A DNA stretch of 57,081 nt from Chloroflexota bacterium (GCA_022561355.1 JADFRJ010000001.1:1-57081); one strand, 5' to 3'; counted from the stretch's first letter, positions 4,860 to 46,692 are shown. Translations and numbers: made by a program. Notes: a model not told the origin generated them from the sequence alone.

Positions 4860-4907
4860 GTGCCATATGGCCCTTTAAGGCTTAACTTAGCAAGCGCTAG
4901 GTTAAGG
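4860..4907 (+). promoter_or_regulatory. candidate operator/promoter composite upstream of the FAD/SCP2/A1 operon (degenerate Box1 at 4860-4873, Box2 CTTAACTTAGCAAGCGCTAGGTTAAGG at 4881-4907)
   Basis: Box2 aligns by eye with 35181-35209 (CTAACTATGTTAGCGAGCGCTAGAATAGG) and with the reverse complement of 28713-28740. It lies 37 nt upstream of the GTG start at 4945. Confidence 0.4.
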
Positions 4908-18325: not shown

Positions 18326-18462
18326 GGAAGAGATGGAGAAGAAAGAACGCGGCGAGCGATCGCAGGTGGTCGGTTCGCGGACTGTACGGAACGGGGACGA
18401 GCCGCTGGGTTGTTGGATGGGTGACCTGGCCACCATTCACTGGCGCTAGCTGCCCGGATCGA

Positions 18463-18476
18463 AGCGGACGTCCGCT
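18463..18476. promoter_or_regulatory. perfect 14-nt palindrome AGCGGACGTCCGCT, 32 nt upstream of the A3 start
   Basis: Read directly from the sequence. It lies in the 182-nt A2-A3 spacer, next to GGCGCTAGC and CAGCGCTAGAGGAGG segments that resemble Box2. Confidence 0.25.
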
Positions 18477-18507
18477 CGCCGGGAGCCTCAGCGCTAGAGG
18501 AGGCGTG

Positions 18508-18657
18508 ATGGCATCTAGGCAAGAGCGGCCGCAGGCGAACGATCCAGGAGACGTGGCGCTCCCACTGCTCGGCCAGCCTGTCACCCGGAGAGGCTTCCTG
18601 AAGGGCGCTTCCGCGGGAGCGGCCGCCCTCTACCTCACGCAGCTCGGTTGCAGCGGC
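18508..18657 (+). other. Tat (twin-arginine) signal region of A3
   Basis: An n-region of about 25 aa is followed by T-R-R-G-F-L-K and an Ala-rich h-region. Confidence 0.75.
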
Positions 18658-21507
18658 GGCGATGATGGCATTCGCCGTGTGGTCGAGCAAGACCAGACCT
18701 TCGGCGATTGGACCGACGTCTACCGAGAGAAGTGGACCTGGGACAAGGTGACGTGGGGAACGCACCTGATCGATTGCTACCCGGGGAGTTGCCTCTTTCG
18801 AGTCTATACCAAAGACGGCATCGTCTGGCGTGAGGAACAGGCCGGCAAGTACCCGGAGGTGGAGCCGGGCGTGCCGGACATGAACCCTCGCGGGTGCCAG
18901 AAAGGCGCTTGCTTCAGCGATGTGATGTACGGGCCGGAGCGCTTGCGCTACCCGCTGCGCCGCGTCGGCGAGCGAGGCGGCGGCAAGTGGGAGCGCATCA
19001 CCTGGGACGAGGCGCTCACTGACGTGGCGGACGGCATCCTGGACGCCATTGATGAGGTGGGGCCGGAGTCGATCATCTACGAGACGGGCCCTGGCAACGG
19101 CGGCATCGTGAACGGGCCGCTGCCTGGCTGGCGCCTGAGCCGCCTGATCGGCGCGACTGTGCTCGACACGAACGGCCTCGTCGGCGATTTCAACGTTGGC
19201 CTATATGAGACGTTCGGCAAGTTCCACTTCGTCTCGTCGGTAGATGACTGGTTCCACTCCGATCTGATCCTGACGTGGCACATGAACCCGGTCTATACGC
19301 GTATTCCCAGCGCGCACTTCATCTACGAGGCGCGCTACCACGGGGCTCGTGTCGTCAACATCGCGCCGGACTACAACGCCTCCAGCGTCCACGCCGATCT
19401 CTGGGTACCCGTGGAGCCGGGGACGGATGCGGCGCTCGCTCTGGCGCTGTGCAAAATCATCATCGATGAAGGGTGGATGAACCGGGACTTCGTCATAGAG
19501 CAGACGGATCTGCCGCTTCTGGTGCGCCTGGACACGAAGCACTTCTTGCGAGCGCCAGATCTGCCGGACGCCGATGCCGGCGCTCGCGATGACCAGTTCT
19601 ACGTCTGGGACGAAGCTACCGGCGCGCTGGCGCCCGCGCCCCGCGACACGCTGCGGCTGAAGACCACGCCAGCACTCGAAGGGCGCTTCGAGGTAGACCT
19701 GGCCGATGGCACACGGATCGAGGTCGTACCCGCGTTCGTGCTGCTGCGGGAGCGCCTGCAGGAGTACACGCCGGAGTACGCCGCATCGGTCACAGGCACA
19801 AAGCCGTCCGTGATCCGGCGGCTTGCTCGGATGGTAGGCGAGGCGAAGCGCGTGCACATCCTGCAAGGCTTCAACATCAACAAGTACTACCACGGCGACC
19901 TGATGGAACGGGCACAGGCGCTGCTGCTGGCGCTGACGGGCAACTTCGGCCGGAAGGGCACAGGGATGCGGGGCTTCAACACGGGTCAGGTCCAGATTGG
20001 CACCGTAGTGAAGGACCGCGCGGGTATGGAGGGCTTCATTCGGCTGGCGGACCGTGCGCTCGACGTCGAAAAGGAGTTGCTCAAAGAGGACCCGACGCTC
20101 ACGGAGGAGATGCGCGCGATCGGCGTCGAACAGGCGGAGGCGGAACGACGCGTGCTTCTGCCGTACGATTCGGGGCCACTCACGGTGCCCGCCGCCTTCT
20201 ACTGGTACTGGCATGCGGGCTACAAGGACGTCTGGAACCGTTCCGACTGGTCGGATCCCAGCATGAAGCGGCCGCTGGGCGAATACTTGGACGAGGCGGT
20301 CGCAAAAGGCTGGTGGGACGGCGTGGCGCTACCGCCACCCGACAAGCCGCCGCGCGTGCTGCTGGAAGTGGCCGCGTCCACGCTGCGCCGCACACGGGGC
20401 GGCTACAAGGTGCTGCGAGAGAAGCTGTGGCCGCAGTTGAAGCTCATCGTCGTGGTCGATCTGCGGATGAGTTCAACAGCGCTTCAGGCCGACATTGTGC
20501 TGCCTGCGGCGGGTTTCTACGAGAAGACGGACTTCCGCTTCCCGACGACACACGTCAACTTCCTCACGTTCACCGAACAGGCTGTGAAGCCGGTGGGCGA
20601 GGCGAAGCCGGAGTGGGAGCTGTTCTCACTGTTGGCGCGCAAGCTCCAAGAGCGGGCGATCGCTCGCGGGATGGAGTCCGTGGTGGACGGCGAGGGTCGT
20701 GAGTTCCCGCTGAACGAGCTGTGGGACCGCTTTTCGATGCGGGGCGCGCTGCGGGAGCGGGACGTCGACGCGCTGGCTGAGGATATCGTTCGCGACACAG
20801 TGCGCGTGGGCGCGTTGCCGGAGCGCACTACACTGAAGACGTTTCGTAAAGAGGGGATCGTTCGCTTCACGGGCATCGGCCAGACGGCGGAGGGGCTCAA
20901 CCTGGCGACGGACATCAAGCCCGACGAGACGGTTTCGCCTCTGCGCTGGCATGTCGAGAAGAAGCTGCCGTACCCTACGCTTACCAGGCGCATCCAGTTC
21001 TACATCGACCACGACTGGTTTCTGGAGGCGGACGAAGCATTGCCGCGCCACAAGCCGAACCCACAGATGGGGGGCTCGCATCCGCTGAAGATGGTGAGCG
21101 GCCATCTGCGCTGGAGCATTCACTCCACCTGGGTGGCGAACAGGCTGATGCTCCAGACGCACCGGGGTGAGCCGTTCTTGATGATGAGCCCTGACGACGC
21201 CTCGTCCCGAGGCATCGCGGATGGCGAGCACGTTCGCGCGTACAACGATGTTGACGAGTTCTTCGTGAAGGTCAAGCTTGGGCCCGCCGTCCGGCCGGGC
21301 GAGGTGATCATCTATCACGCCTGGGAGCCGTATCAGTACAAGAACTGGAAGCCGTACGACAGCGCTATCCCCGGCATGATCAAATGGCTCCACTTGGCGG
21401 GCGGCTACGGCCATCTGAAGTACTGGCGCAACAACTGGCAGCCGCAGCAGGCCGACCGCGCGATCGCCATTGAGGTGGAAAAGATGGCGCCGGAAGGAGA
21501 CGTGTAG
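18508..21507 (+). CDS. type II DMSO-reductase-family alpha subunit A3 with a twin-arginine signal peptide
   Basis: ATG at 18508 after GAGGAGG. Tat motif TRRGFLKGASAGAAALYL. Then GTHLIDCYPGSCLFRVYTKDGIVWREEQ, NPRGCQKG, GDFNVGLYETFGKF and KWLHLAGGYGHLKYW. Confidence 0.87.
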   Translation: MASRQERPQANDPGDVALPLLGQPVTRRGFLKGASAGAAALYLTQLGCSGGDDGIRRVVEQDQTFGDWTDVYREKWTWDKVTWGTHLIDCYPGSCLFRVYTKDGIVWREEQAGKYPEVEPGVPDMNPRGCQKGACFSDVMYGPERLRYPLRRVGERGGGKWERITWDEALTDVADGILDAIDEVGPESIIYETGPGNGGIVNGPLPGWRLSRLIGATVLDTNGLVGDFNVGLYETFGKFHFVSSVDDWFHSDLILTWHMNPVYTRIPSAHFIYEARYHGARVVNIAPDYNASSVHADLWVPVEPGTDAALALALCKIIIDEGWMNRDFVIEQTDLPLLVRLDTKHFLRAPDLPDADAGARDDQFYVWDEATGALAPAPRDTLRLKTTPALEGRFEVDLADGTRIEVVPAFVLLRERLQEYTPEYAASVTGTKPSVIRRLARMVGEAKRVHILQGFNINKYYHGDLMERAQALLLALTGNFGRKGTGMRGFNTGQVQIGTVVKDRAGMEGFIRLADRALDVEKELLKEDPTLTEEMRAIGVEQAEAERRVLLPYDSGPLTVPAAFYWYWHAGYKDVWNRSDWSDPSMKRPLGEYLDEAVAKGWWDGVALPPPDKPPRVLLEVAASTLRRTRGGYKVLREKLWPQLKLIVVVDLRMSSTALQADIVLPAAGFYEKTDFRFPTTHVNFLTFTEQAVKPVGEAKPEWELFSLLARKLQERAIARGMESVVDGEGREFPLNELWDRFSMRGALRERDVDALAEDIVRDTVRVGALPERTTLKTFRKEGIVRFTGIGQTAEGLNLATDIKPDETVSPLRWHVEKKLPYPTLTRRIQFYIDHDWFLEADEALPRHKPNPQMGGSHPLKMVSGHLRWSIHSTWVANRLMLQTHRGEPFLMMSPDDASSRGIADGEHVRAYNDVDEFFVKVKLGPAVRPGEVIIYHAWEPYQYKNWKPYDSAIPGMIKWLHLAGGYGHLKYWRNNWQPQQADRAIAIEVEKMAPEGDV

Positions 21508-35230: not shown

Positions 35231-38020
35231 ATGTCACAGGAGGAATCACGACGATTGAAATCGGGCAGCATGTCGCAACCATGGGCGGAGGCGTATCGGG
35301 AGAGATGGAAGTGGGACAAGATCGCCTGGGGCACCCATTGTGTCGATTGCTATCCATCAAACTGTCCGTATCGCGTCTATGTGCGGGATGGTAAGGTCGT
35401 TCGCGAGGAGCCAGGCGGCACGTACGAGGTAGTAGAAGAGGGTGTTCCGGACATGAACCCGTCCGGTTGCCAGAAGGGGGCGGCCTGGAGCCAGATGCTG
35501 TACGGCAAGGAACGTCTGCTCCATCCCGTACGGCGCGCGGGTGAGCGTGGCGAGGGCAAATGGGAGCAGGTCTCCTGGGACGAGGCGCTCACCGAAATCG
35601 CCGACGCTATGCTGGACGCGATTCAGGAATCGGGGCCCGAATCGATCGTGCGCATCGGGACGCCGGGGCAGGGCGGCACGCAGAGCATGGTTCTTGGGGG
35701 CGGGGTCCTTTCACGTATTGGCGCTACGCATACGGACGTCCAATCCGAGATCAACGACTTCAATCCGGGCGTCTACACGACGTTCGGGCGGTTCGATCCG
35801 TGCCCGAGCAACGACGACTGGTTTCATTCAAAGTTGCTGCTGATCTGGGCGAATAATCCCGCCTACAGTTCGATCCCGACGTTCCACTACATCGCCGAGG
35901 CGCGCTACAACGGCGGCGAAGTTGTCGTTATCGCGCCCGACTACAGCCCTTCCGCGATCCACGCCGACTATCATCTTGCCGTCCGCATCGGTTCCGATGC
36001 CGCGCTGGCCCTCTCCATGTGTCGCGTCATCATCGACGAGGGCCTGATGGACAAGGCGTTCGTCGCGGAGCAGACCGACCTGGGCCTGCTGGTGCGCGTT
36101 GACAACGGCCGCTTCCTGCGCGAGTCGGATGTCCAAGAGGGCGGCTCTGATGAGGTCTTCCATCTCTACGATACCCGCGGCGGCCAGATTGTCGAAGCGC
36201 CCCGCACGCTCGATTTGGGCGAGATCGAGCCGGCCTTAGCGGGCTCGTACACGGCGACACTCGCGGACGGGACGCAGCTAGAGGTGCAACCGGCGTTCGA
36301 GCGTCTGCGGGAACGCCTGCAGGATTACGCGCCGGACGACGCATCGCTCATCTGCGGCATCCATGCGGATACGATTCGGACCCTAGCGCGCAAGGCGGCG
36401 ACGCGGACCACGCGGATCCTTCTCGGGTGGACGCTGGGCAAGTCCTATCACGGAGATTTGATGGAGCGTTCGCTCTGTCTGCTGCTGGCGCTCACCGGCA
36501 ACTGGGGGAAGAAGGGCGCGGGCATTCGTAGCTGGGCGGTCGGCATGTTCGATGGGCCGTTCCTGCTGGCTTCCAAACCGCGTCCTGGCCAGGACGCGAC
36601 GCGAGAGATGTTCAAGGTCCAGCAGGCGATGATGGACAGCGTGCTCGCGAATGATCCGGCGCTCACTCCGGAAATCCTGATGACGGAGATGGGCTACCAA
36701 GGCGCCGCTGTGGGAGGCGGGATTCCGTCGGCCGTCTTCTGGTACAACCATTGCGGCTATCGTGAGGCCTGGAACACCGCCGAGTGGAACGATCCTTCTA
36801 TGAAGCGTTCGTTTGATGAGTACGTGGATGAAGCGATCAAAAAAGGGTGGTGGCAGGGCGCCGCTCAGCGCTCTCGAGACACGCCACCGCGCGTGATGTT
36901 CGAGATTGGCGGGAACATGCTCCGGCGTCAGCGTGGCGGGCAGCGTATGCTATTGGAGCACCTCTGGCCGAAGCTGAAGATGATCGTCTCGATCGACTGG
37001 CGCATCACGACGACGGGGCTCTACTCCGACATCATCCTGCCGGCGGCACAGCACTACGAGAAGCCGAACTTCCCGTACACGACCCCGGACATCATGACGC
37101 TCACGCTGTCGGACCGGGCCGTCGAGCCGGCAGGGGAGTCCCGCTCGGAGTGGCAAATCGACCAGATGCTTGCGAAGAAGCTAGGCGAACGGGCGAAGGC
37201 GCGCGACTTCGTAGAGATGCCGGTCGAGGGTGGCGGCTCGGTGCGGCTCGACAGGCTCTATGAGGACATCACGATGGATGGCGCGCTCTCGGATGACGAC
37301 GCCGTGATCGACGAGATGATCCGCGATTCCGCCGTGCTCGGTAACATCCCTGCTGACACGACGCTCGAATCGCTGCGGGAGACCGGGTTCGTGCGCTTCA
37401 CGGGCTGGGGACGCTCGCCGATGGCGCTGGCGCAGGCGTCCGATCTTCTGCCGGATGAGACGCACTCGCCATTTCGTTGGCAGACGGAAAAGAAAGAGCC
37501 GTTCCCCACACTGACGCGGCGCGCGCAGTTCTACATCGACCACGAGTGGTTCTTGGAGGCCGGTGAGGAGCTGCCCGCGCACAAAGAGGCGCCCGCCCAC
37601 GGCGGCGGCTATCCGTTGCAGATCACGAGCGGCCACCCACGCTGGAGCGTTAACTCCATGAATAGCACCAGCAATATCATCCTCGGTACGTCACGAGGTG
37701 AACCCGTCGTTCACATCAACGACCGGGATGCTGCTGCGCGCGGCATAGAGAATGGGCAGGACATCCGCGTCTATAACGATTGTTCTTCGCTGACGGTCCA
37801 GGCTCGCGTGACACCGGCCGTCCAGCCCGGCCAGGTGATCAGCTACAACGGCTGGGAGCCGTACCAGTTCAAGGGCTGGCAGGACATCTCCAATCTTGAG
37901 CCTGGCATGGTGAAGTGGCTCCACTTAGCGGGCGGCTACGGACACCTTCGCTATCGAGCCATGCACTGGCAACCCGTGCCTATCGACCGTGGTGTTCGGG
38001 TCGATATCGCCCCGGCATAG
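35231..38020 (+). CDS. type II DMSO-reductase-family alpha subunit A5 (no signal peptide, no adjacent beta)
   Basis: 929 aa. Motifs: GTHCVDCYPSNCPYRVYVRDGKVVREE, NPSGCQKG, NDFNPGVYTTFGRF and KWLHLAGGYGHLRYR. GAGAGGTG RBS. Confidence 0.9.
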   Translation: MSQEESRRLKSGSMSQPWAEAYRERWKWDKIAWGTHCVDCYPSNCPYRVYVRDGKVVREEPGGTYEVVEEGVPDMNPSGCQKGAAWSQMLYGKERLLHPVRRAGERGEGKWEQVSWDEALTEIADAMLDAIQESGPESIVRIGTPGQGGTQSMVLGGGVLSRIGATHTDVQSEINDFNPGVYTTFGRFDPCPSNDDWFHSKLLLIWANNPAYSSIPTFHYIAEARYNGGEVVVIAPDYSPSAIHADYHLAVRIGSDAALALSMCRVIIDEGLMDKAFVAEQTDLGLLVRVDNGRFLRESDVQEGGSDEVFHLYDTRGGQIVEAPRTLDLGEIEPALAGSYTATLADGTQLEVQPAFERLRERLQDYAPDDASLICGIHADTIRTLARKAATRTTRILLGWTLGKSYHGDLMERSLCLLLALTGNWGKKGAGIRSWAVGMFDGPFLLASKPRPGQDATREMFKVQQAMMDSVLANDPALTPEILMTEMGYQGAAVGGGIPSAVFWYNHCGYREAWNTAEWNDPSMKRSFDEYVDEAIKKGWWQGAAQRSRDTPPRVMFEIGGNMLRRQRGGQRMLLEHLWPKLKMIVSIDWRITTTGLYSDIILPAAQHYEKPNFPYTTPDIMTLTLSDRAVEPAGESRSEWQIDQMLAKKLGERAKARDFVEMPVEGGGSVRLDRLYEDITMDGALSDDDAVIDEMIRDSAVLGNIPADTTLESLRETGFVRFTGWGRSPMALAQASDLLPDETHSPFRWQTEKKEPFPTLTRRAQFYIDHEWFLEAGEELPAHKEAPAHGGGYPLQITSGHPRWSVNSMNSTSNIILGTSRGEPVVHINDRDAAARGIENGQDIRVYNDCSSLTVQARVTPAVQPGQVISYNGWEPYQFKGWQDISNLEPGMVKWLHLAGGYGHLRYRAMHWQPVPIDRGVRVDIAPA

Positions 38021-38114
38021 AGTGCGCTGCTTAGGTGGCGCTGCTCTCCAGTGTCGATTGGCATGCTGGTGGGCCGGCATCAGACCACAATGTTGCCTAC
38101 GGCCCGTGGTGAAC

Positions 38115-38128
38115 GGGCCATCCGGCCC
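38115..38128. promoter_or_regulatory. Box1-type palindrome GGGCCATCCGGCCC upstream of the small ORF / A6 operon
   Basis: Read directly. It overlaps a second hairpin, GGCCCGT-N5-ACGGGCC (38101-38119). Confidence 0.3.
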
Positions 38129-38143
38129 TCGCCCCGCACGGCT

Positions 38144-38169
38144 TGCTTTTGCGATAGTGAGCAAAAGCA
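38144..38169 (+). promoter_or_regulatory. 9-bp inverted repeat TGCTTTTGC-N8-GCAAAAGCA, 34 nt upstream of the small-ORF start
   Basis: Perfect arms read directly. It is AT-richer than its surroundings and no U-tract follows, so an operator or 5'-UTR hairpin is more likely than a terminator. Confidence 0.3.
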
Positions 38170-38202
38170 CAAATGGAGCTTACGAGAGGGAGATAGACAA
38201 GC

Positions 38203-38508
38203 ATGGGAAGTGCTGGGGGCCCTAAGCTCACGAAGGATTTCGAGCCTGACGACCCTTTGGAGTTGGTTGGCGTTGGGCTGGCGGAGCCGCCCGATGACGC
38301 GGCATTGGACGAGATGGCGTGCTCGATCGTCGAAGAGTACATGCGCATGGGCTGGACGGGCGAAAACATCATGCGCCTCTTTCGTAACCCGGCGTTTCAC
38401 ATGACGCACAACATCCTGCGTCTCAAAGGCGAGGTATACGTGCAGGGCCTCGTCGCGTCCGTGGATCGGATGCGCAGCGAACTTCAGCGGTCGGGAGATG
38501 GATCATGA
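38203..38508 (+). CDS. small hypothetical protein (101 aa), translationally coupled to A6
   Basis: GAGGGAG RBS. Balanced amino-acid composition with an acidic N-terminal half and a helical-looking C-terminal half. The stop overlaps the A6 ATG (ATGA at 38505-38508). I recognise no family. Confidence 0.5.
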   Translation: MGSAGGPKLTKDFEPDDPLELVGVGLAEPPDDAALDEMACSIVEEYMRMGWTGENIMRLFRNPAFHMTHNILRLKGEVYVQGLVASVDRMRSELQRSGDGS

Positions 38509-38594
38509 AGCCACTAAGCCGTCGTACGTTTCTCAAGCTAGCTGGCGGCGCAACCGCGGCAGGCGTCGCGTTGGGCAGCCCTGCCGTTCTTGCG
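38505..38594 (+). other. Tat signal peptide of A6
   Basis: S-R-R-T-F-L-K, then an Ala/Gly-rich h-region, then a possible VLA cleavage context. Confidence 0.8.
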
Positions 38595-41500
38595 CTGCGC
38601 CGCTTCCAGCCGGTTGCTATCGGCAACCCGCTGGAAGACTACCCGAGCCGCGATTGGGAGACGGTCTATCGCGATCAGTATGGCTACGACGGCAGCTTTA
38701 CGTGGGTCTGCTCTCCCAACGACACGCACGCGTGCCGGCTGCGCGCGTTCACGCGAAACGGCATCGTGACGCGGATTGAGCAGAATTACGATAGCGGCAA
38801 CATCACGGACATCGAGGGTAACAAGGCAACCGCCCACTGGAACCCGCGAGGCTGCGAGAAAGGGCTCTCGATGCACCGGCGCGTCTACGGGCCCTACCGC
38901 CTGCAGCACCCAATGATCCGTCAGGGATGGAAGCAGTGGGCGGACGATGGCTTCCCTGAGCTGACACCGGAGAACCGCGACAAGTATCTGTTCACCGACC
39001 GTGGTCACGATACATTCGCCCGCGTCTCTTGGGATGAGGCGCACGACTATGCCGCCCGTGGCATGATCGCGGTCGCGGAAGCGTACAGCGGCGATGAGGG
39101 CGCGCGCCGGCTGGAGGCCGAAGGCTACCAGCCGGAGATGATCGAGGCGATGCACGGCGCCGGAACACGCACGATCAAACTGCGCGGCGGCATGGGTTTG
39201 CTCGGCGTCATCGGCAAGTACGGCATGTACCGCTTTTCCAATACGCTGGCCTTCCTCGACAGCCACGTACGCGGCATCGATGTCGACGATGCGCTGGGCG
39301 GTCGCAGCTGGTCGAACTACACCTGGCACGGCGACCAGGCACCGGGACAGCCGTTTGTCCACGGCCTGCAGACGTCCGACTGCGACTTCAACGACATGAT
39401 CTACACGAAGCTGCACATCCATGCGGGCGTCAACATGATCGAGAACAAGATGCCCGATACGCACTTCTTCTACAACACAATGGAACGCGGCGGGAAGATC
39501 GTGATCATCTCGCCCGAGTACAGCCCCCAGGCCACCAAAGCGGACTACTGGCTCTCCGTCCGGCCGGGCATCTCTGACACCGCCATCTTTTTAGGTGTGT
39601 CGAAGATCATCATGGACAACGGCTGGCATGATGAGGCCTACGTCAAACAGTTCTCCGACTTCCCTCTGCTCGTGCGAACGGACAACCTGAAGCGTCTGCG
39701 CGCGAGCGAAGTCTTCCCCAACTACCAGTCGAGCCTGTCTCAGGACGGTCCCAGCTTCGCGCTCCAGGGCCTGAAGCAGGAGCAGCATGAGCAGCTCGGC
39801 GACTTCGTCGTGTTCGACAACAACAGCAACAGCCTCAAGGCGCTCACTCGCGACGACCTTGGCGATCGCATGGTGCAGAAGGGCATCGACCCGACGCTGG
39901 AGTATCAGGAGACGATCACGCTCGTGGACGGCAGCGAGGTCGAGGTGATGACGCTGTGGGAGATGTACAAGATCAACCTGCGCGACTACGACCTAGACAC
40001 CGTGCATGAGATCTGCGGCGCCCCGAAGGACCTCATCGAGCAGCTTGCCAAGGACATCGCGACGATCAAGCCCGTCGCGATTCACGTCGGCGAAGGCATC
40101 CAGCACTGGTTCCACGCCACGCTGCACAACCGGGCGACCTACCTGCCGTTGATCCTGACCGGGAACATTGGAATGAAGGGCGCGGGGTGCCACCAGTGGG
40201 CCGGGAACTACAAGGCTGCGCTCTTCCAGGCTTCTCCGTGGACAGGCCCGGGCTTCAAGGGCTGGATCGCCGAGGACCCGCTCCGGCCGAACCTGGACCC
40301 GAACGCGTCGGGCTCGGACATTCTGGTGAAGAACCACGCCAAGGACGAGGAGCCGGCCTACTGGAACCACGGCGACCAGGCGCTGATCGTGGACACACCC
40401 TCGCAGGGACGCAAGAACTTCACCGGTGAAACTCACATGCCGACGCCCACGAAGGTGATGTGGTTCAACAACGTGAACATCATCAACAACGCCAAGTGGG
40501 CCTACCACATGATCAAGAACGTCAACCCGAAGGTCGACATGATCGTCAACCAGGACATCGAGATGACGGCTACGGGCGAGTACTCGGACATCTTGCTTCC
40601 AGCCAACTCCTGGATGGAGTTCCAGCAGTTGGAAGTAACGGCGTCCTGTTCGAATCCCTTCCTCCAGATCTGGGGCAAGGGAGGCATCAAGCCGCTCTAC
40701 GACTCGGAAGACGACATCACGATTATCGCCAACATGGCGGCCAAGCTCGCCGACCTGCTAGACGACTCACGGATCAGGGACTACTGGAAGTTTGCCCTAG
40801 AGGGGCGGCCGGAAGTCTACCTGCAGCGCTTGTTGGACGCTTCCACCACTACCAAGGGATACAAGGTCGACGACATCATGGCCGGCAAGTATGGGGAGCC
40901 GGGCGCGGCCCTGATGCTCTTCCGTACGTACCCGCGCGTTCCCTTCTACGAGCAGATGGTAGATAACGTTCCCTTCTATACGGACACGGGGAGACTCAAC
41001 TCATACTGCGATATCCCGGAAGCAATCGAGTACGGCGAGAACTTCATCGTCCACCGGGAAGGACCGGAGGCGACGCCGTATCTGCCAAACGTCATCGTCA
41101 GCACGAACCCATACATCCGGCCGGAGAACTACGGCATCACTCCGGAGATGCTCCAGAGCGAGGTGCTCGACGGCGAGTTGCGGACGATCGCGAACAACAA
41201 GATGTCCTGGGAAGAGGTGAAGAACACGAAGAATACGCTCTGGGAGAAGGGCTTCAGCTTCTACTGTCTGACGCCCAAGACCCGCCACCGCGTGCACTCG
41301 CAGTGGGGCAACGTCGACTGGCACCAGATATGGGACTCCAACTTCACCGACCCATATCGGCGGGACACACGAATGCCCGGCGTCGGCGAGCATCAGGTCC
41401 ACATCAACCCAGAAGCGGCCAAGGACCTCGGCATCGAGGACGGCGACTACGTGTACGTCGACGCGAACCCGGCCGACCGGCCCTACGTGGGCTGGTCGGA

Positions 41501-41981
41501 GGACGATCCGTTCTACAAGGTTGCGCGCCTGATGCTGCGCGCCCGGTACAACCCGTCGTATCCGTACAACGTCATCATGATGAAACACGCGACCAGCATG
41601 GCGACGGAACGAACGGTGCGCGCGCATGAGACGCGGCCGGACGGCCGGGCCCTGTCCGAGGACACCGGCTATCAGGCGAACCTGCGCTATGGCTCCCAGC
41701 AGAGCCTCACGCGCGACTGGGCGATGCCCATGCACCAGACGGACACGCTGTTCCACAAGGCGAAGGTGGCCACGGCCTTTATCTTCGGCGGCGAGGCCGA
41801 CAACCACGCGATCAATACCGTGCCGAAGGAAACGCTGGTGCGGGTGACGAAAGCAGAGCCGGGAGGACTCGGGGGCAGGGGCGTCTGGACACCCGGCACA
41901 AGCGGCAAGACCCCGGCGGCAGAGGATGCTGACATGAACAAGTACCTGGCCGGCGGCTTCATTCAGACGCGTGAAAGCTAG
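38505..41981 (+). CDS. Tat-exported NxrA/NarG-like type II DMSO-reductase-family alpha subunit A6 (periplasmic NXR type)
   Basis: 1158 aa. Tat signal MKPLSRRTFLKLAGGATAAGVALGSPAVLA. FS0 region WVCSPNDTHACRLRAFTRNGIV...NPRGCEKG. Mo-ligand region WHGDQAPGQPFVHGLQTSD. It is followed by an NxrB-like beta gene. Confidence 0.88.
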   Translation: MKPLSRRTFLKLAGGATAAGVALGSPAVLALRRFQPVAIGNPLEDYPSRDWETVYRDQYGYDGSFTWVCSPNDTHACRLRAFTRNGIVTRIEQNYDSGNITDIEGNKATAHWNPRGCEKGLSMHRRVYGPYRLQHPMIRQGWKQWADDGFPELTPENRDKYLFTDRGHDTFARVSWDEAHDYAARGMIAVAEAYSGDEGARRLEAEGYQPEMIEAMHGAGTRTIKLRGGMGLLGVIGKYGMYRFSNTLAFLDSHVRGIDVDDALGGRSWSNYTWHGDQAPGQPFVHGLQTSDCDFNDMIYTKLHIHAGVNMIENKMPDTHFFYNTMERGGKIVIISPEYSPQATKADYWLSVRPGISDTAIFLGVSKIIMDNGWHDEAYVKQFSDFPLLVRTDNLKRLRASEVFPNYQSSLSQDGPSFALQGLKQEQHEQLGDFVVFDNNSNSLKALTRDDLGDRMVQKGIDPTLEYQETITLVDGSEVEVMTLWEMYKINLRDYDLDTVHEICGAPKDLIEQLAKDIATIKPVAIHVGEGIQHWFHATLHNRATYLPLILTGNIGMKGAGCHQWAGNYKAALFQASPWTGPGFKGWIAEDPLRPNLDPNASGSDILVKNHAKDEEPAYWNHGDQALIVDTPSQGRKNFTGETHMPTPTKVMWFNNVNIINNAKWAYHMIKNVNPKVDMIVNQDIEMTATGEYSDILLPANSWMEFQQLEVTASCSNPFLQIWGKGGIKPLYDSEDDITIIANMAAKLADLLDDSRIRDYWKFALEGRPEVYLQRLLDASTTTKGYKVDDIMAGKYGEPGAALMLFRTYPRVPFYEQMVDNVPFYTDTGRLNSYCDIPEAIEYGENFIVHREGPEATPYLPNVIVSTNPYIRPENYGITPEMLQSEVLDGELRTIANNKMSWEEVKNTKNTLWEKGFSFYCLTPKTRHRVHSQWGNVDWHQIWDSNFTDPYRRDTRMPGVGEHQVHINPEAAKDLGIEDGDYVYVDANPADRPYVGWSEDDPFYKVARLMLRARYNPSYPYNVIMMKHATSMATERTVRAHETRPDGRALSEDTGYQANLRYGSQQSLTRDWAMPMHQTDTLFHKAKVATAFIFGGEADNHAINTVPKETLVRVTKAEPGGLGGRGVWTPGTSGKTPAAEDADMNKYLAGGFIQTRES

Positions 41982-42007
41982 CTCCCGGAAGGCTGGAGGT
42001 CGTAATA

Positions 42008-43273
42008 ATGGCTAAGGTTCACAACTGGCAGCTAGGGCGGGAGATGGACTACCGCTTCCCGGAGGTCCATCCAGACCGGCAGTTCGTCGCCGTGTTCAAC
42101 ATCAACAGGTGTATCGCGTGTCAGACCTGCACGTTCGCTTGCAAGTCAACGTGGACGTACAGCCGCGGCCAGGAGTTGATGTGGTGGAACAACGTCGAGA
42201 CCAAGCCGTATGGGGGCTACCCGCACCACTGGGACATCAAGCTCCTCCAGCTGCTGAACGACGCCAATCCAGGCGGCCAGACATGGGACGCATCTACGCA
42301 GAGCGACGACGCGCCGTACGGCGAGTTCAAGGGCATGACGATCTTCGAGGCCGGCGCCGCGGAGGGGAAAGACAGCGCTATCGGCTACCTCCCGACCGAG
42401 GAGGACTGGACGTCTCCGAACTTCTATGAAGACACGGCGAAAGGCAACCCGGGGGTGCCGAACGAGTACCATCCGGAGGGCGCGCAGCTTCCGGAGCACA
42501 ACACGTGGTTCTTCTACCTGCAGCGCATCTGCAACCACTGCACGTACCCCGGTTGCGTATCGGCCTGCCCCCGCAACGCCATCTACAAGCGGCCGGAGGA
42601 TGGCATCGTCCTCATCGATCAGGAGCGCTGCCGCGGCTACCAGAAGTGCGTGGAGCAGTGCCCCTACAAGAAGTCGATGTACCGGCCGAACCAGCAGGTC
42701 AGCGAGAAGTGCATCGGCTGCTATCCGCGAGTTGAGGGAAGCGACCCAATTACGGACGGTGTGCCGATGGAGACGCGTTGTGTGGCGACGTGCGTCGGAA
42801 AGATCCGTCTACAGGGCCTCGTGGACATCCAGGACGGCGAGTGGGTAGAAGCGCCAACCAATCCGCTCTACTACCTGGTGCGGAAGGAGCAGGTGGCGCT
42901 GCCGCTCTACCCCCAGTTTGGCACGGAGCCGAACGTCTACTACATCCCGCCCCGATGGGTTCCGCGTGAGTACCTGCGCCAACTGTTCGGCCCCGGTGTC
43001 GATCAGGCCATCGACCGATACACCAATCCGTCTCGCGAGCTGCAGGCGGTGCTCCAGCTCTTCCGCTCCACGCAGAAGATCATCTTCCGCTACGAGATTG
43101 AGGAGGGCGAGGAGATCATGGATACCGAAGTCAACGGCCGCCGCGTGCAGATCTTCAACGATACGATCATCGGCTTCGACGGCAATGACCAGGAGGCGGT
43201 GCGAATCTCCGTGGAAGAGCCGTTTCACATTCGAAACGGCGAATTCGCGGGACAGTTCCAGAACTCCATCTAG
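42008..43273 (+). CDS. NxrB/NarH-like four-cluster Fe-S beta subunit B6
   Basis: The N-terminus MAKVHNWQLGREMDY...FVAVFNINRCIACQTCTFACKSTWT..GQELMWWNNVETKPYGGYP matches my recollection of Nitrospira/Kuenenia NxrB. Further clusters: CNHCTYPGCVSACP, CRGYQKCVEQCP and CIGCYPRVEG...CVATCVGKIR. Confidence 0.88.
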   Translation: MAKVHNWQLGREMDYRFPEVHPDRQFVAVFNINRCIACQTCTFACKSTWTYSRGQELMWWNNVETKPYGGYPHHWDIKLLQLLNDANPGGQTWDASTQSDDAPYGEFKGMTIFEAGAAEGKDSAIGYLPTEEDWTSPNFYEDTAKGNPGVPNEYHPEGAQLPEHNTWFFYLQRICNHCTYPGCVSACPRNAIYKRPEDGIVLIDQERCRGYQKCVEQCPYKKSMYRPNQQVSEKCIGCYPRVEGSDPITDGVPMETRCVATCVGKIRLQGLVDIQDGEWVEAPTNPLYYLVRKEQVALPLYPQFGTEPNVYYIPPRWVPREYLRQLFGPGVDQAIDRYTNPSRELQAVLQLFRSTQKIIFRYEIEEGEEIMDTEVNGRRVQIFNDTIIGFDGNDQEAVRISVEEPFHIRNGEFAGQFQNSI

Positions 43274-43288
43274 ATCGGAGGACGGGCG

Positions 43289-44071
43289 ATGACAACGCAG
43301 ACGATCGAATTGAGAAAGGAACAGGTGGCCACGTACCACCTGGCCCGTAGCGCGGCCTATCGGCTGTTGTCCCAGGCGACGGTCTATCCCACCGGTGAGG
43401 TCGTCGCCGCGCTGAGCGACGAGGACCTGTCGCAGGCGCAGGCGGCCGCCGCGGTCCTGGGAGCCCCTTTCTCCGAGCGCCTGGGCGTGTTTGAGCGAGA
43501 GCTGCACGCAGCGTCTCCGGAGCAGCTTCAGGACCAGCACCGGCGCATTTTCTCGCACATCCTATCGCTGGACTGTCCGCCCTGCGAGACCGTGTACACC
43601 GCGAGCGAGATCTTCCAAGAGACGGACCACCTGAGCGATATCGCTGGCTTCTTCCGGGCGTTCGGCATGGAGCTGGCCGAGAAGGAGCGTCCGGATCATA
43701 TCAGCATCGAGCTTGAGTTCATGCACCTCGTCACCTGCAAAGAAGCGGTCGCGCAGCTGCGTCATGGACCCGAGAAGGCGCGATTGTGCCGCGTGGTGCA
43801 GCGAAAGTTCATGGAGGACCACCTGGGACGCTGGGGGCAGCAGTTCGCCCGGCAGCTCGAACGCCAGGCGCCCGCAGGCTACTTCCGAGCGGTCGCCAGG
43901 CTCCTCGATGCGTTCCTTGCCGCTGAGGTTAGCTATCTGCGCGCGAAACCCGAGGTCTTGCGAGTGAATTCTGACTGGCGGACGAAGCTTGACGAGGAAG
44001 GCTGTTCGACTACAGATGGGTGCCCACTCGTGGAGTCAGGAGAAGACAATGGAAACCTTATCCAGCTCTAA
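43289..44071 (+). CDS. NarJ/TorD-family delta chaperone D6
   Basis: 260 aa. Contains HRRIFSH...CPPCETVY and RPDHISIELEFMHLVTCKE, parallel to D1. GGAGGA RBS. Confidence 0.8.
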   Translation: MTTQTIELRKEQVATYHLARSAAYRLLSQATVYPTGEVVAALSDEDLSQAQAAAAVLGAPFSERLGVFERELHAASPEQLQDQHRRIFSHILSLDCPPCETVYTASEIFQETDHLSDIAGFFRAFGMELAEKERPDHISIELEFMHLVTCKEAVAQLRHGPEKARLCRVVQRKFMEDHLGRWGQQFARQLERQAPAGYFRAVARLLDAFLAAEVSYLRAKPEVLRVNSDWRTKLDEEGCSTTDGCPLVESGEDNGNLIQL

Positions 44072-45041
44072 GAGGCTCACCGTTATCATCATGGCGTTCG
44101 TGTTCGTCGGCGCCGCGGCGCTGACCCTGTTCGACCTACGACTGGCCTCTTCCCAGACCGTCACGCTTGTGGCCAAGCGCAGCGAAAACGCGATACCACT
44201 CGACGACCCGTCAGCCGACGTCTGGGATAAAGGAGCGCCAATACAGGTGCCCTTGAGCGGCCAGAATACCGTGCCGCCGCGAGGCGGAGGCGAAGGGACC
44301 GTCACCGCGAGGGCGCTTCATTACGATGGGAAGCTCTATATCCGCATGGAGTGGAGCGACGCCACCAAGGACGATTCGACGAGCATGCAGAACGAATTCA
44401 CCGACGCAGCGGCCGTCCAGTTTCCGGTCGAACACGGCGAGAGCGTACCCGCGTTCTGCATGGGCAACCCGGACGCTCCCGTAAATATTTGGCAATGGAA
44501 GGCCGCCTGGCAGACTGGAACGGACGCCTCCGTCCTCGATGTGCAGGAGGCGTACCCGAACATCGCCGTGGACTTCTATCCGTTTGAGGACGAACCGGAG
44601 TTCTACCCGGCGGCTGCCTCCGGAAACATCGTTGTGCGGGCGGACCGCACGAGCGCGGCAGACAATCTGTTAGCCGGGAGCTTTGGCACGCTTACGGCGG
44701 CCGAAGACCAGATGGTCGCCGGAATGGGGGCCTGGGATGACGGCAAGTGGAGAGTCGTGTTCTCCCGCGACCTACAGGTAGGTGCGGAGTACGCGCAGTT
44801 CGCCGAAGGGGACAGCACGAACGTGGCGTTCGCTGTCTGGAACGGAGCGAACGCCGAGCGGGACGGGATGAAGTCCGTCTCGCAGTTTCTCACGCTAGAG
44901 GTCTCGCCGGAGATCGCAACAGGTGGTGGAGGCCTGTCAGGCGGGACAATTGGGCTGTTCGTAGTAGTAGGTTTGGTCGTAGTGGCTGGGCTGGCCACTG
45001 TAGGTAGCTACCTTCTGTACACGCGACGCCAGACGGCCTGA
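44049..45041 (+). CDS. EbdC/NxrC-like heme-b gamma subunit with an N-terminal signal peptide and a C-terminal TM anchor
   Basis: The start was set at the ATG at 44049, giving a 23-nt overlap with the delta gene. Signal: METLSSSKRLTVIIMAFVFVGAAALTL. Motifs: FCMGNPDAPVNIWQWKAAW and FAVWNGANAERDGMKSVS. The C-terminal helix is IGLFVVVGLVVVAGLATVGSYLLY followed by TRRQ. Confidence 0.75.
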   Translation: METLSSSKRLTVIIMAFVFVGAAALTLFDLRLASSQTVTLVAKRSENAIPLDDPSADVWDKGAPIQVPLSGQNTVPPRGGGEGTVTARALHYDGKLYIRMEWSDATKDDSTSMQNEFTDAAAVQFPVEHGESVPAFCMGNPDAPVNIWQWKAAWQTGTDASVLDVQEAYPNIAVDFYPFEDEPEFYPAAASGNIVVRADRTSAADNLLAGSFGTLTAAEDQMVAGMGAWDDGKWRVVFSRDLQVGAEYAQFAEGDSTNVAFAVWNGANAERDGMKSVSQFLTLEVSPEIATGGGGLSGGTIGLFVVVGLVVVAGLATVGSYLLYTRRQTA

Positions 45042-45052
45042 GGCAGCGGTAG

Positions 45053-46087
45053 ATGCTCGTTCCCACGGTCCAGCGTATCTTTTTCAACTACCAGCTTCCG
45101 CGATTGCGGGTCAGCGAGACTCTCTTGCGACAGGTCGTGCAGGGACTCATCGTGGCTGCGCTTCTGGAGATCGTTCTCCTTCGCCTGGCGACACGCATAG
45201 GCGTGCACGTTCCCCGCAGTGAGCTGGCCGCTGATGGCCTGCAGGCCGCATCGTTCGTCGGTTCGCTCGCCTTCAACTCCGCATCGATCCTCGCGATCGG
45301 CTTGACCGTGCTGCTGCTGCTGATGATGACTATGCGCGTGCGAGACAGCGTCGCTCGCTTCGGCCTCGTCTTGATCTCTGGCGCGCTCATGATCAGTCTC
45401 ATGATGAGCCTGGTCACAGGAAGGGCCGCCTGGGACGGCGCGTTCGGCTTGGCCGCTACGTTGTTGGTCCTGCTGCTCGGCGTCACGCTCATGGCCAGGA
45501 AGGACGTTAGTACCGGCCCAAGAGCGGCTGTTGCGCTCATCGTTGGGGCGTATCTTTGCTACCAGTACTACTCGCTCTCCTACATCACGTATCGGCTGCT
45601 CGACTATGCGGCGCTGCCGCCATTGGGCATCGATGTGCTCCGGTGGGGAGAGGTGCTGGTCGTGCTCGCGGGCGGCGCTGTCTTCTGGGCCTGGGGGAGA
45701 CCGCGCTGGCGGCTTGCCGGGCGCTTGGGCATCGCAGCCGTCGTTGGGTTCGTGGTCATCGTAGGCCTCAGCAGCCTTACGCCGTCCTCCACCACATCGA
45801 TCCTCGCCCTCTGGACCACAGGGATGAGCTTCTTCTTACCGTCGCCGGTGTATCTCGTCGCGCTGGCTCTCTACCTGGTGACGGTCGTGGCCTGCTTCCG
45901 CGACAAGGACGCTTTTTGGCTCGGGGCCGGCCTGCTCCTGTTGTTGGTAGCTGGATACATGCCAGAAGCGACCTACCATCATTTGCTGGTCATCCTTGGG
46001 GTTGGGTTTCTGGCAGGCGCCTTTCATGTCGTCGAAGAAGCTACAGAACGAGCGCCTGGGACGATCTCAATGCACACACGACACTGA
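45053..46087 (+). CDS. polytopic integral membrane protein, unknown family
   Basis: 344 aa with about 9-10 hydrophobic segments. It starts 12 nt after the gamma stop on the same strand. No recognisable motif. Confidence 0.55.
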   Translation: MLVPTVQRIFFNYQLPRLRVSETLLRQVVQGLIVAALLEIVLLRLATRIGVHVPRSELAADGLQAASFVGSLAFNSASILAIGLTVLLLLMMTMRVRDSVARFGLVLISGALMISLMMSLVTGRAAWDGAFGLAATLLVLLLGVTLMARKDVSTGPRAAVALIVGAYLCYQYYSLSYITYRLLDYAALPPLGIDVLRWGEVLVVLAGGAVFWAWGRPRWRLAGRLGIAAVVGFVVIVGLSSLTPSSTTSILALWTTGMSFFLPSPVYLVALALYLVTVVACFRDKDAFWLGAGLLLLLVAGYMPEATYHHLLVILGVGFLAGAFHVVEEATERAPGTISMHTRH

Positions 46088-46218
46088 ATATGGGCGGCGG
46101 AGTCAACAAGCGCAAGGTTGGAGATTACCAAAGGGATAGCTGAAGAAGCCGGTCCTGTTACTGCCTGGGAAGCAGATGTTCCTTTACGGAGCTACTCCGG
46201 CGTAGATGCGGATGGTAA

Positions 46219-46692
46219 CTAGCGGTCCGTGCCACTGTTATCGATCCAGTCATTGAGGCTGGCTACATTCCGGGCTGGAATGGGTGAGAACTCAAGGGTC
46301 GTGATGCTTCCACCATCGACGTCTGAGATATGCAGCTCAGCGAACACATCCATGTAGCCACCGAGATCGAGGCGGACGGTTTGCAGCCGCAGGACGCCAT
46401 CGCCGTCCTCGACGAGGACGAGTTCCCATGGCCCTTCTTCGATCTTCCTTTTGATGGCGCCCGCCACCTCCGAAACCGGCTGCTCCGACAGCAACTCGAC
46501 GCGATACGGCAAGAACGAACCTCGGCCGGTGTTCGCTATCTCCGCGGCGTCCGGCAGGGGGAAGTCGTCGGGCAAGGCCTGAAGAACGGTCTGCTGCCCG
46601 AACGGGTCCTGCCTGAACGGCGCATTGTTGCTCACGTACGCGGATAGGAGGTAGCCGGAGGTGAGGCCGATGACCGCAAGCGCCACTCCCAT
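46219..46692 (-). CDS. hypothetical N-terminally anchored protein
   Basis: I trimmed the 187-aa TTG-initiated track ORF to the ATG at 46692 (MGVALAVIGLTSGYLLSAYV...). It has one TM helix followed by a domain of about 130 aa with normal composition. Confidence 0.45.
   Translation of the reverse strand: MGVALAVIGLTSGYLLSAYVSNNAPFRQDPFGQQTVLQALPDDFPLPDAAEIANTGRGSFLPYRVELLSEQPVSEVAGAIKRKIEEGPWELVLVEDGDGVLRLQTVRLDLGGYMDVFAELHISDVDGGSITTLEFSPIPARNVASLNDWIDNSGTDR

Follow-up and report, generated by a model that had tools for sequence, protein, structure and literature searches.

Virtually all of the nitrate found in nature is reportedly made by nitrite oxidoreductase (NXR) (PMC8387239), and the enzyme of the anammox bacterium Kuenenia is described as bidirectional (PMC10732223). 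In its catalytic subunit NxrA the ligands of the iron-sulfur cluster FS0 are C67/D71/C75/C115, N70 is placed to coordinate the substrate at a position where EbdA has Ile, and D275 binds Mo (PMC8387239); two unannotated open reading frames (ORFs), kustd1701 and kustd1702, lie between nxrA and nxrB (PMC6423088). NxrA of Nitrospira and Nitrospina is reported to be about 60% identical to that of Kuenenia (PMC8387239), and the same clade holds the proven nitrate reducers Methanoperedens and Thermogutta (PMC10732223, PMC7327174). Operons termed 'nxr-like' have been described in metagenome-assembled genomes (MAGs) of heterotrophic Chloroflexi, Armatimonadetes and Planctomycetota; MAGs such as CFX1 are reported to lack a carbon-fixation pathway, the direction of the enzyme being left undecided, and published trees place such Chloroflexi sequences, including CFX1 (L028 below), in the group of nitrite-oxidising bacteria (NOB) and anammox organisms (PMC9306079). 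Here an operon of this kind was analysed on a 57,081-nt contig of Chloroflexota bacterium GCA_022561355.1 (JADFRJ010000001.1:1-57081), and the whole contig is referred to as the window. As judged from sequence, its product is an anammox-clade nitrite:nitrate oxidoreductase; the enzymes of Nitrospira and Nitrospina are reported to belong to this clade as well.

Identity of the enzyme

The catalytic subunit encoded in the window, A6, was compared with all PDB sequences, and the best match was NxrA of Kuenenia stuttgartiensis (7B04_B) with 1785 bits (E=0, query 4-1154 on 3-1145), followed by PcrA with 198 bits, EbdA (2IVF_A) with 130 bits and NarG with about 100 bits. Since the score is about 10 times that to perchlorate reductase, ethylbenzene dehydrogenase (EBDH) and NarG, the homology to Kuenenia NXR was considered overwhelming. 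By BLASTP against a partial Kuenenia NxrA sequence the identity was 63% over 960 amino acids, much as reported for the Nitrospira and Nitrospina proteins.

A prediction made earlier from the DNA of the window (hereafter the original prediction) had proposed a likeness of A6 and its Fe-S partner B6 to NxrA and NxrB, with an Asp at FS0 as a peculiarity of NxrA. The likeness survives real alignment to 7B04, at 1785 bits for A6 and 600 bits for B6, and the Asp is a crystallographically confirmed, published feature of Kuenenia NxrA (PMC8387239), hence no novelty. In A6 the stretch VCSPNDTHAC occupies residues 68-77 and provides the FS0 ligands C69/D73/C77, the fourth being C117 (C-x3-D-x3-C...C), and the substrate Asn (N72) and the Mo ligand (D277, in WHGDQAPG) are both kept. 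The predicted length of 1158 amino acids and the twin-arginine translocation (Tat) signal were likewise found: the N-terminus reads MKPLSRRTFLK with the Tat motif SRRTFLK at residues 5-11, and the signal scored 17.4 bits with TIGR01409 (cut-off 16.7) and 20.9 with Pfam TAT_signal, slightly below the cut-off of 22.7. A6 is not of the EBDH type, as judged by its 145 bits with NF042978 against a cut-off of 2000, its Cys/Asp type of FS0 and the presence of the Asn, and it is only 24-31% identical to the paralogues A1-A5 in the window.

The remaining subunits agree with this assignment. The N-terminus that had been quoted for B6 was found as stated. The Cys residues of B6 number exactly 15 and are grouped 4+4+3+4; each aligns with a Cys of Kuenenia NxrB. 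This fits a predicted set of three [4Fe-4S] clusters and one [3Fe-4S] cluster, and B6 also matches TIGR03478 and Fer4_11. The delta chaperone matches PF02613 (2.8e-18) and TIGR03482, the family of type II dimethyl sulfoxide (DMSO) reductase chaperones (1.6e-20), and has a weak PDB match to NarJ (8JZD). Gamma matches PF09459 (EB_dh) with 1.7e-38, TIGR03477 with 8.4e-49 and Kuenenia NxrC (7B04_C) with 103 bits; its ORF spans 43989-45041, but translation probably begins at the ATG at 44049, which an AGGAGAA ribosome-binding site precedes, and not at the TTG at 43989. Its M138/K275 align with the haem ligands M108/K201 of EBDH and with the Kuenenia ligands reported as Met155/Lys305 (PMC8387239).

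In the phylogenetic tree, Kuenenia NxrA falls inside a 71-member family together with A6 (SH-aLRT 100). Long branches lead to A1-A5 and to L105, a second alpha subunit described below, and the paralogues are set off by about 1.5 substitutions per site. The tree was built without Nitrospira or Nitrospina references, and the relation of these to A6 is taken from the literature. A6 thus clusters with Kuenenia NXR and not with chlorate, selenate or dimethyl sulfide (DMS) dehydrogenases or with the hydroxylase-like paralogues, and ligands, tree and PDB scores all agree with the original proposal, in which the periplasmic-type enzyme was either a nitrite oxidoreductase or a nitrate reductase acting in reverse. 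That A6 belongs to this family and acts on nitrite/nitrate is, on these comparisons, highly probable, and by every sequence-level hallmark tested the core enzyme is an ordinary further member of the periplasmic NXR family.

Organisation of the operon

The NXR transcription unit consists of six genes in the order S-nxrA-nxrB-nxrD-nxrC-M and spans 38203-46087 (Table 1). The original prediction had described a unit of four genes at 38505-45041; these four are present as described, but the operon genes S and M had been omitted from its reading of the finding. Apart from the overlaps of S with nxrA and of nxrD with nxrC, the gaps within the operon are 11-26 nt. The gene after M is convergent, and the genes farther downstream (glycosyltransferase, methyltransferase, hydrolases, Cu-ATPase) are unrelated.

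Table 1. Features of the NXR operon and its upstream region, with positions counted from the first nucleotide of the window.
Feature	Position	Strand	Description
Box1	38115-38128		Palindrome GGGCCATCCGGCCC, a candidate promoter element or operator, lying in the 182-nt gap that precedes the operon
S	38203-38508	+	101-aa helical protein, predicted cytoplasmic, of an unnamed family; translationally coupled to nxrA, its stop overlapping the nxrA start (ATGA)
nxrA (A6)	38505-41981	+	Tat-exported catalytic subunit with molybdenum-bis(pyranopterin guanine dinucleotide) (Mo-bisPGD), 1158 aa
nxrB (B6)	42008-43273	+	Fe-S subunit, 421 aa; 600 bits to Kuenenia NxrB (7B04_A) over residues 2-410
nxrD (delta)	43289-44071	+	Cytoplasmic assembly chaperone of the NarJ/TorD family, 260 aa
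nxrC (gamma)	44049-45041	+	Haem-b subunit, exported; 330 aa with the ATG at 44049 as start
M	45053-46087	+	Polytopic membrane protein of 344 aa with about 8-10 helices, of an unnamed family; closes the operon, 11 nt after gamma

The source MAG has 2.3 Mb, is 77.6% complete and is rated 3.5% contaminated. The possibility that the operon lies on a contaminant contig was rejected: the 57-kb contig has the GC content of the genome, and the same operon occurs at 91-94% identity in Chloroflexota MAGs.

Membrane anchor and cell envelope

Gamma has two hydrophobic segments, the N-terminal signal and a C-terminal transmembrane helix at about residues 301-320, and with PF09459 and M138/K275 this bears out the earlier description of a signal peptide, haem-b motifs and a C-terminal anchor. 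The distribution of the anchor was followed in a comparison set of 80 NxrA-anchored loci that were fetched with A6 (L001-L080). It is found in 36 of 37 Chloroflexota loci, in all 8 from Actinomycetota and in two archaeal loci (one of them slightly below the score threshold), and in none of the loci of Planctomycetota (0/7), Verrucomicrobiota (0/2) and Acidobacteriota (0/2). Among 7 phylogenetically independent contrasts of anchor and lineage on the NxrA tree, 6 went the same way, none went the opposite way and 1 showed no difference (p=0.03). The gamma anchor tracks single-membrane lineages.

The source organism itself appears to be single-membrane (monoderm). Sortase was found in all six genomes of its clade (the source and five relatives), with two sortase genes side by side in the source genome (G000, contig C206:8800-10834), and the LPXTG protein noted in the original prediction is present as ORF 2-1567, ending in LPETG, a hydrophobic stretch and RRR. 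BamA/Omp85 was absent from five of the six genomes, including the source, and the sixth gave only weak partial matches; three diderm organisms that carry this enzyme (Planctomycetota, Verrucomicrobiota) do have BamA. The enzyme is read here as tethered because, once exported, it would escape from a cell that has no outer membrane.

Very probably, then, the enzyme is outward-facing and anchored by gamma. Of the original term 'periplasmic', the exported orientation stands, and the location is better called extracytoplasmic, at the outer face of the sole membrane. NxrA and NxrB would be loaded with cofactors in the cytoplasm with the aid of delta and then exported jointly by the Tat route, NxrB, whose N-terminus has no hydrophobic segment and no signal peptide, hitch-hiking on NxrA. 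Gamma would be exported separately, and its C-terminal helix would hold the complex on the outer face, where the enzyme may swap electrons with membrane-tethered high-potential carriers; a cytochrome c-cupredoxin fusion and an aa3 oxidase are encoded in the genome (see below).

The operon proteins S and M

Homologues of S were found by tblastn in 67 of the 80 loci, and three further genomes carry S on parts outside the clipped loci. The usual place of S is between nxrA and nxrB, and in the closest clade of the window operon it lies upstream of nxrA. The family has about 90-100 amino acids and is linked to NXR across many phyla. Its invariant residues in the family alignment are D17, P18, E45, G50, F60 and G76, and its motifs are an N-terminal E-x-DDP-x-E-L-V and a core (F/V)-x-E-E-(Y/F)-x-x-x-G-W. 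A profile search gave 935 proteins, and the source names among the 120 matches listed were all 'hypothetical' or 'uncharacterized'. Three members chosen independently of NxrA each lie between a Mo subunit of 1154-1156 amino acids and an Fe-S subunit. S was not found in six NXR-bearing genomes: those of L064 ('Nitrospinae'), L011 and L033, a Schekmanbacteria MAG and two Hydrothermarchaeota MAGs. There was no Pfam match even at E up to 5, and the profile gave nothing significant against PDB sequences. The AlphaFold2 (AF2) model of S has four helices (pLDDT 88), and a fold search of this model against the PDB gave no structural neighbour (best E=4.5).

M matched no Pfam or NCBIfam family, and Pfam was also blank for ten diverse members of the M family. 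In the closest clade, to which plain tblastn matches were confined, M is 45-85% identical and always directly follows gamma. With a profile and then jackhmmer, M turned up beside NXR genes in 39 loci, of which 35 carry a Chloroflexota or Actinomycetota label; its place there is either directly after gamma or directly before nxrA, and it was beside NXR in none of the loci of Planctomycetota, Verrucomicrobiota or Acidobacteriota. The family comprises proteins of about 320-350 amino acids, with 362 representatives at 50% identity among 1.84 billion proteins searched. Conserved positions are E39, R44, R48, E200, W254 and Y267, and there is no conserved His or Cys, for which reason the candidate role of a NarI-like cytochrome b was dropped. 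The AF2 model of M, made from 7 sequences, is of low confidence (pLDDT 55).

Both S and M are single copy in the source genome. From gene linkage and comparative counts it is likely that they belong to the NXR system. S would probably be an assembly helper that assists cofactor loading of NxrA/NxrB in the cytoplasm, and M is probably a docking or assembly partner, or a haem-delivery partner, of the enzyme at the membrane.

Distribution of the family

The NxrA proteins closest to A6 are from the Chloroflexota MAGs OFTM331 (94%), B45T1L10 (91%) and RBG_16_64_32 (82%); the OFTM prefix is used for MAGs from biofilms of the Oslofjord subsea tunnel (PMC10732223). Members of the A6 family occur in Chloroflexota, Acidimicrobiia, Planctomycetota, Verrucomicrobiota, Acidobacteriota and further groups.

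Two loci stand out by their labels: L022 ('Kiloniellales') nests among Acidimicrobiia and has their anchor and M gene, and L036 ('Saprospiraceae') is nearly identical to L051 of Dehalococcoidia. In both cases an error of binning or labelling is more probable than gene transfer. L064, labelled 'Nitrospinae', falls in a GTDB phylum of two genomes, and its genome carries a second Tat-bearing NXR-like alpha (L105, G006 contig C4:5805-9260), 43% identical to A6 and possibly of the Nitrotoga/Hydrogenobaculum-like type. In some relatives an extra unannotated ORF of 288-302 amino acids lies between the chaperone gene and gamma (L109:9409-10317; L112:9461-10327), for which the window has no counterpart. 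A JGI contig carrying P0240 holds a diderm-type NXR cluster in which gamma is fused to two cytochrome c domains (577 amino acids). Genes for an Rrf2-family regulator and for NnrS flank this cluster, which hints that control in some carriers responds to nitrogen oxides.

Respiratory chain and carbon metabolism

An A-type haem-copper oxidase above the family cut-off was found in the source genome and in 4 of the 5 relatives searched. The aa3 oxidase operon of the source lies on contig C31 with CoxB, CoxC and the haem A synthesis proteins CtaA/CtaB. Cytochrome bd was absent from five of the six genomes of the clade, with none in the source, where no match to a second haem-copper oxidase was obtained either. 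An operon for a bc-type complex (G000 contig C123:8921-13538), its subunits assigned by reading sequence motifs, encodes a cytochrome b6-like protein, a subunit IV-like protein, a Rieske protein and a cytochrome c-cupredoxin fusion. The fusion has 694 amino acids and is membrane-anchored, with an N-terminal monohaem cytochrome c (CRLCH), a long linker and a C-terminal cupredoxin-like domain (C-x4-H-x4-M). With this layout it could plausibly act as a tethered electron shuttle in a cell without a periplasm. Two class I cytochromes c resembling proteobacterial c4/c5 and carrying Gram-negative signal peptides were seen elsewhere in the bin (G000 contig C209:312-1950); such proteins look unexpected among Chloroflexota sequences and are possible contaminants of the bin.

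The checks for CO2 fixation and cytochrome bd that the original prediction had suggested were run. The RuBisCO large subunit, CdhC/ACS and the ACL citrate-binding domain were absent or below cut-off in the source and the five relatives; the reversed oxidative tricarboxylic acid (TCA) cycle was not searched for. The organism is considered non-autotrophic because no RuBisCO, ACL or ACS was found, and on its gene content it is not a canonical autotrophic nitrite oxidiser: a terminal oxidase (aa3) is present, the searched means of CO2 fixation are not.

A census of Mo-bisPGD proteins in the genome gave, besides A6, seven EBDH-like proteins (five in the window and one each on C40 and C239) and two NuoG/Fdh-like proteins, and no NarG, NapA or NasA. 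In the recovered genome A6 thus stands alone as a Mo enzyme acting on nitrate or nitrite. NirK was absent from the source genome, and no source ORF has more than two CxxCH motifs, which makes Nrf, Hao and NapC-type proteins unlikely.

Elements upstream of the operon

The exact pattern GGGCC-N4-GGCCC of Box1 has two matches in the window, both intergenic. Sites by the hydroxylase operons of the window are at 4860, 28747, 34104 and 35165, and the NXR region in question is 38040-38210. Box1 with its flanks, CACAATGTTGCCTA...GGGCCA-N3-GGC...GATAGTG, is kept upstream of the operon for NXR in L001, L002 and L009. At the hydroxylase operons Box1 is followed by Box2 (TTAGC..GCTAG), which is missing before NXR, where another inverted repeat is found (TGCTTTTGC-N9-GCAAAAGCA). 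A sigma-70 scan of 37900-46400 gave no promoter, and there was no convincing terminator after M.

Direction of catalysis

That sequence does not settle the direction of catalysis had been stated in the original prediction, and the literature agrees, the clade being a mixture of nitrite oxidisers, anammox organisms and proven nitrate reducers (PMC10732223, PMC9306079, PMC10839748). The evidence is read here with a slight lean to nitrate reduction over nitrite oxidation as the main direction, a reading in which confidence is about even. The organism would be a non-autotrophic, mainly aerobic heterotroph that, under oxygen shortage, employs the enzyme for the most part as a respiratory nitrate reductase, and electrons would pass from quinol through the bc complex and the c/cupredoxin protein to gamma, beta and alpha and thence to nitrate. 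The reverse path, from nitrite through NXR and c/cupredoxin to aa3 and O2, would also be open. Nitrate reduction is favoured because A6 is the sole candidate nitrate reductase in the genome, because the operon is embedded in an island of O2-independent Mo hydroxylases with characterised relatives that operate in denitrifiers, because the clade includes the nitrate reducers Methanoperedens and Thermogutta (PMC10732223, PMC7327174) and, as weak evidence, because Box1 is common to the NXR and hydroxylase operons and is kept in relatives.

Several results weigh against this picture. The only oxidase found is a low-affinity aa3, which marks an aerobe and through which nitrite oxidation would be equally easy, and with no downstream nitrite reductase found in the genome, nitrite would accumulate. 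Direction is not encoded in sequence (PMC10839748, PMC9306079). The absences from the genome are provisional, the MAG being 77.6% complete, and autotrophy by a reversed oxidative TCA cycle is conceivable. With one mismatch allowed, Box1 has 10 sites against 6.2 expected, not above chance, and the argument for a shared regulator is given little weight because of this lack of enrichment; nor is Box2 common to the NXR and hydroxylase operons, and no FNR, NarXL or NsrR regulator lies beside the operon. M is unlikely to carry electrons itself because it has no cofactor ligands, and gene linkage is the sole ground for the roles given to S and M.

The same enzyme in the same topology may instead be run oxidatively, as supplementary nitrite oxidation by a heterotroph (lithoheterotrophy) in which electrons pass from gamma to the tethered c/cupredoxin protein and on to aa3, with no CO2 fixation. 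This is a serious possibility, if somewhat short of an even one. Nitrite oxidisers and anammox organisms make up most of the family in published trees, A6 is 63% identical to a demonstrated NXR (PMC8387239), and the genome has an aa3 oxidase and shows neither a high-affinity oxidase nor a downstream denitrification enzyme. The authors of PMC10732223 favour NxrA for the cluster since its carriers have oxygen reductases, and non-autotrophic nitrite oxidation is raised for such MAGs in PMC9306079. With no autotrophy genes found, however, nitrite would at best be a supplement, and there is no obvious logic for a nitrite oxidase beside O2-independent hydroxylases or with a common upstream element; the same clade also includes true nitrate reducers, and the sequence gives nothing in favour of the oxidative direction.

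Two further readings concern the substrate and the partners of the enzyme. The substrates of the type II DMSO-reductase family vary, five hydroxylase-like paralogues adjoin, and the NCBIfam family matches of A6 are only sub-threshold, all of which would suit an enzyme for chlorate, perchlorate, selenate or, as in the paralogues, a hydrocarbon or sterol, with the likeness to NXR being a matter of ancestry only. PcrA, EbdA and NarG, however, reach only about a tenth of the NXR score, A6 keeps the substrate Asn (Ile in EbdA), the Mo-ligand Asp and the Asp-type FS0, and the paralogues are distant both in identity (24-31%) and in branch length (about 1.5 substitutions per site), so another substrate is highly improbable. 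It is equally hard to credit that the beta and gamma subunits of NXR also serve the Tat-exported hydroxylase paralogue A3 (18421-21507), which was taken to be without beta and gamma subunits of its own. Residues 3-143 of A6 do match A3 in the Tat region, but B6 and gamma are of the NXR type, A3 is only about 25% identical to A6, and in L001 and L002 the 8 kb around the operon hold no match to an A5-type paralogue.

A wider proposal is doubtful: that the anchored gamma, M and S together define a version of NXR for single-membrane cells, that M couples the enzyme to the respiratory chain or delivers haem b to gamma, and that heterotrophic Chloroflexota and Acidimicrobiia are a large unrecognised guild oxidising nitrite for supplementary energy without CO2 fixation.

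Marker-gene surveys score every nxrA of this clade as 'nitrite oxidation', and the operon, as one of those in widespread carriers that are no autotrophic nitrifiers, illustrates how unreliable this assignment is. S and M could help to account for the assembly of the exported enzyme and for its attachment to, or wiring into, the membrane, and the position of NXR inside an island of O2-independent hydroxylases suggests a possible tie of the degradation of water-insoluble lipids to nitrate respiration.

Comparison with known systems

EBDH and steroid C25 dehydrogenase, PcrAB and NarGHI share with the window enzyme the NarG-like, type II Mo-bisPGD plan of alpha, beta and (haem-b) gamma subunits with a NarJ-like chaperone. 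They differ in that FS0 of NarG and EbdA is His-ligated and in that NarGHI faces the cytoplasm and uses NarI. The NXR-type nitrate reductases of Ca. Methanoperedens and Thermogutta terrifontis belong to the same clade as A6 and show that an outward-facing enzyme can serve nitrate respiration (PMC10732223, PMC7327174). Methanoperedens is single-membrane like the source organism, but Methanoperedens and Thermogutta are of other phyla and have other donors (methane or organics) and other partner proteins. NxrABC of Nitrospira and Nitrospina is of the same clade in published trees and has the Tat export and periplasmic orientation of the window enzyme, but these are diderm chemolithoautotrophs with the reductive TCA cycle, whereas the source organism and its five relatives are without RuBisCO, ACL and ACS and apparently monoderm.

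Kuenenia NXR-ABC (Kustd1700/1703/1704, PDB 7B04) aligns with the window enzyme along the whole of all three structural subunits, and the two have in common the Tat signal, the FS0 of three Cys and one Asp, the substrate Asn, the Mo Asp, the Fe-S Cys pattern and the Met/Lys haem b. In Kuenenia, however, NXR is soluble in the anammoxosome, forms tubules with NXR-T and is encoded in a 15-gene cluster rich in cytochromes c. The window operon is unlike it in the C-terminal anchor of gamma, in the M gene after gamma, and in having no linked genes for NXR-T or cytochromes c.

In their available parts, the reports of 'nxr-like' MAGs treat nxrA/B(/C) only and do not mention S, M or the link between anchor and envelope, and the S family, the M family and this link, all recognised here by sequence comparison, were not found in those parts of the NXR literature that were searched. 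The occurrence of 'nxr-like' genes in heterotrophic Chloroflexi is already published (PMC9306079). CFX1 (L028) and RBG_16_64_32 (L004), whose NxrA proteins are 67% and 82% identical to A6, respectively, have the same operon core as the window.

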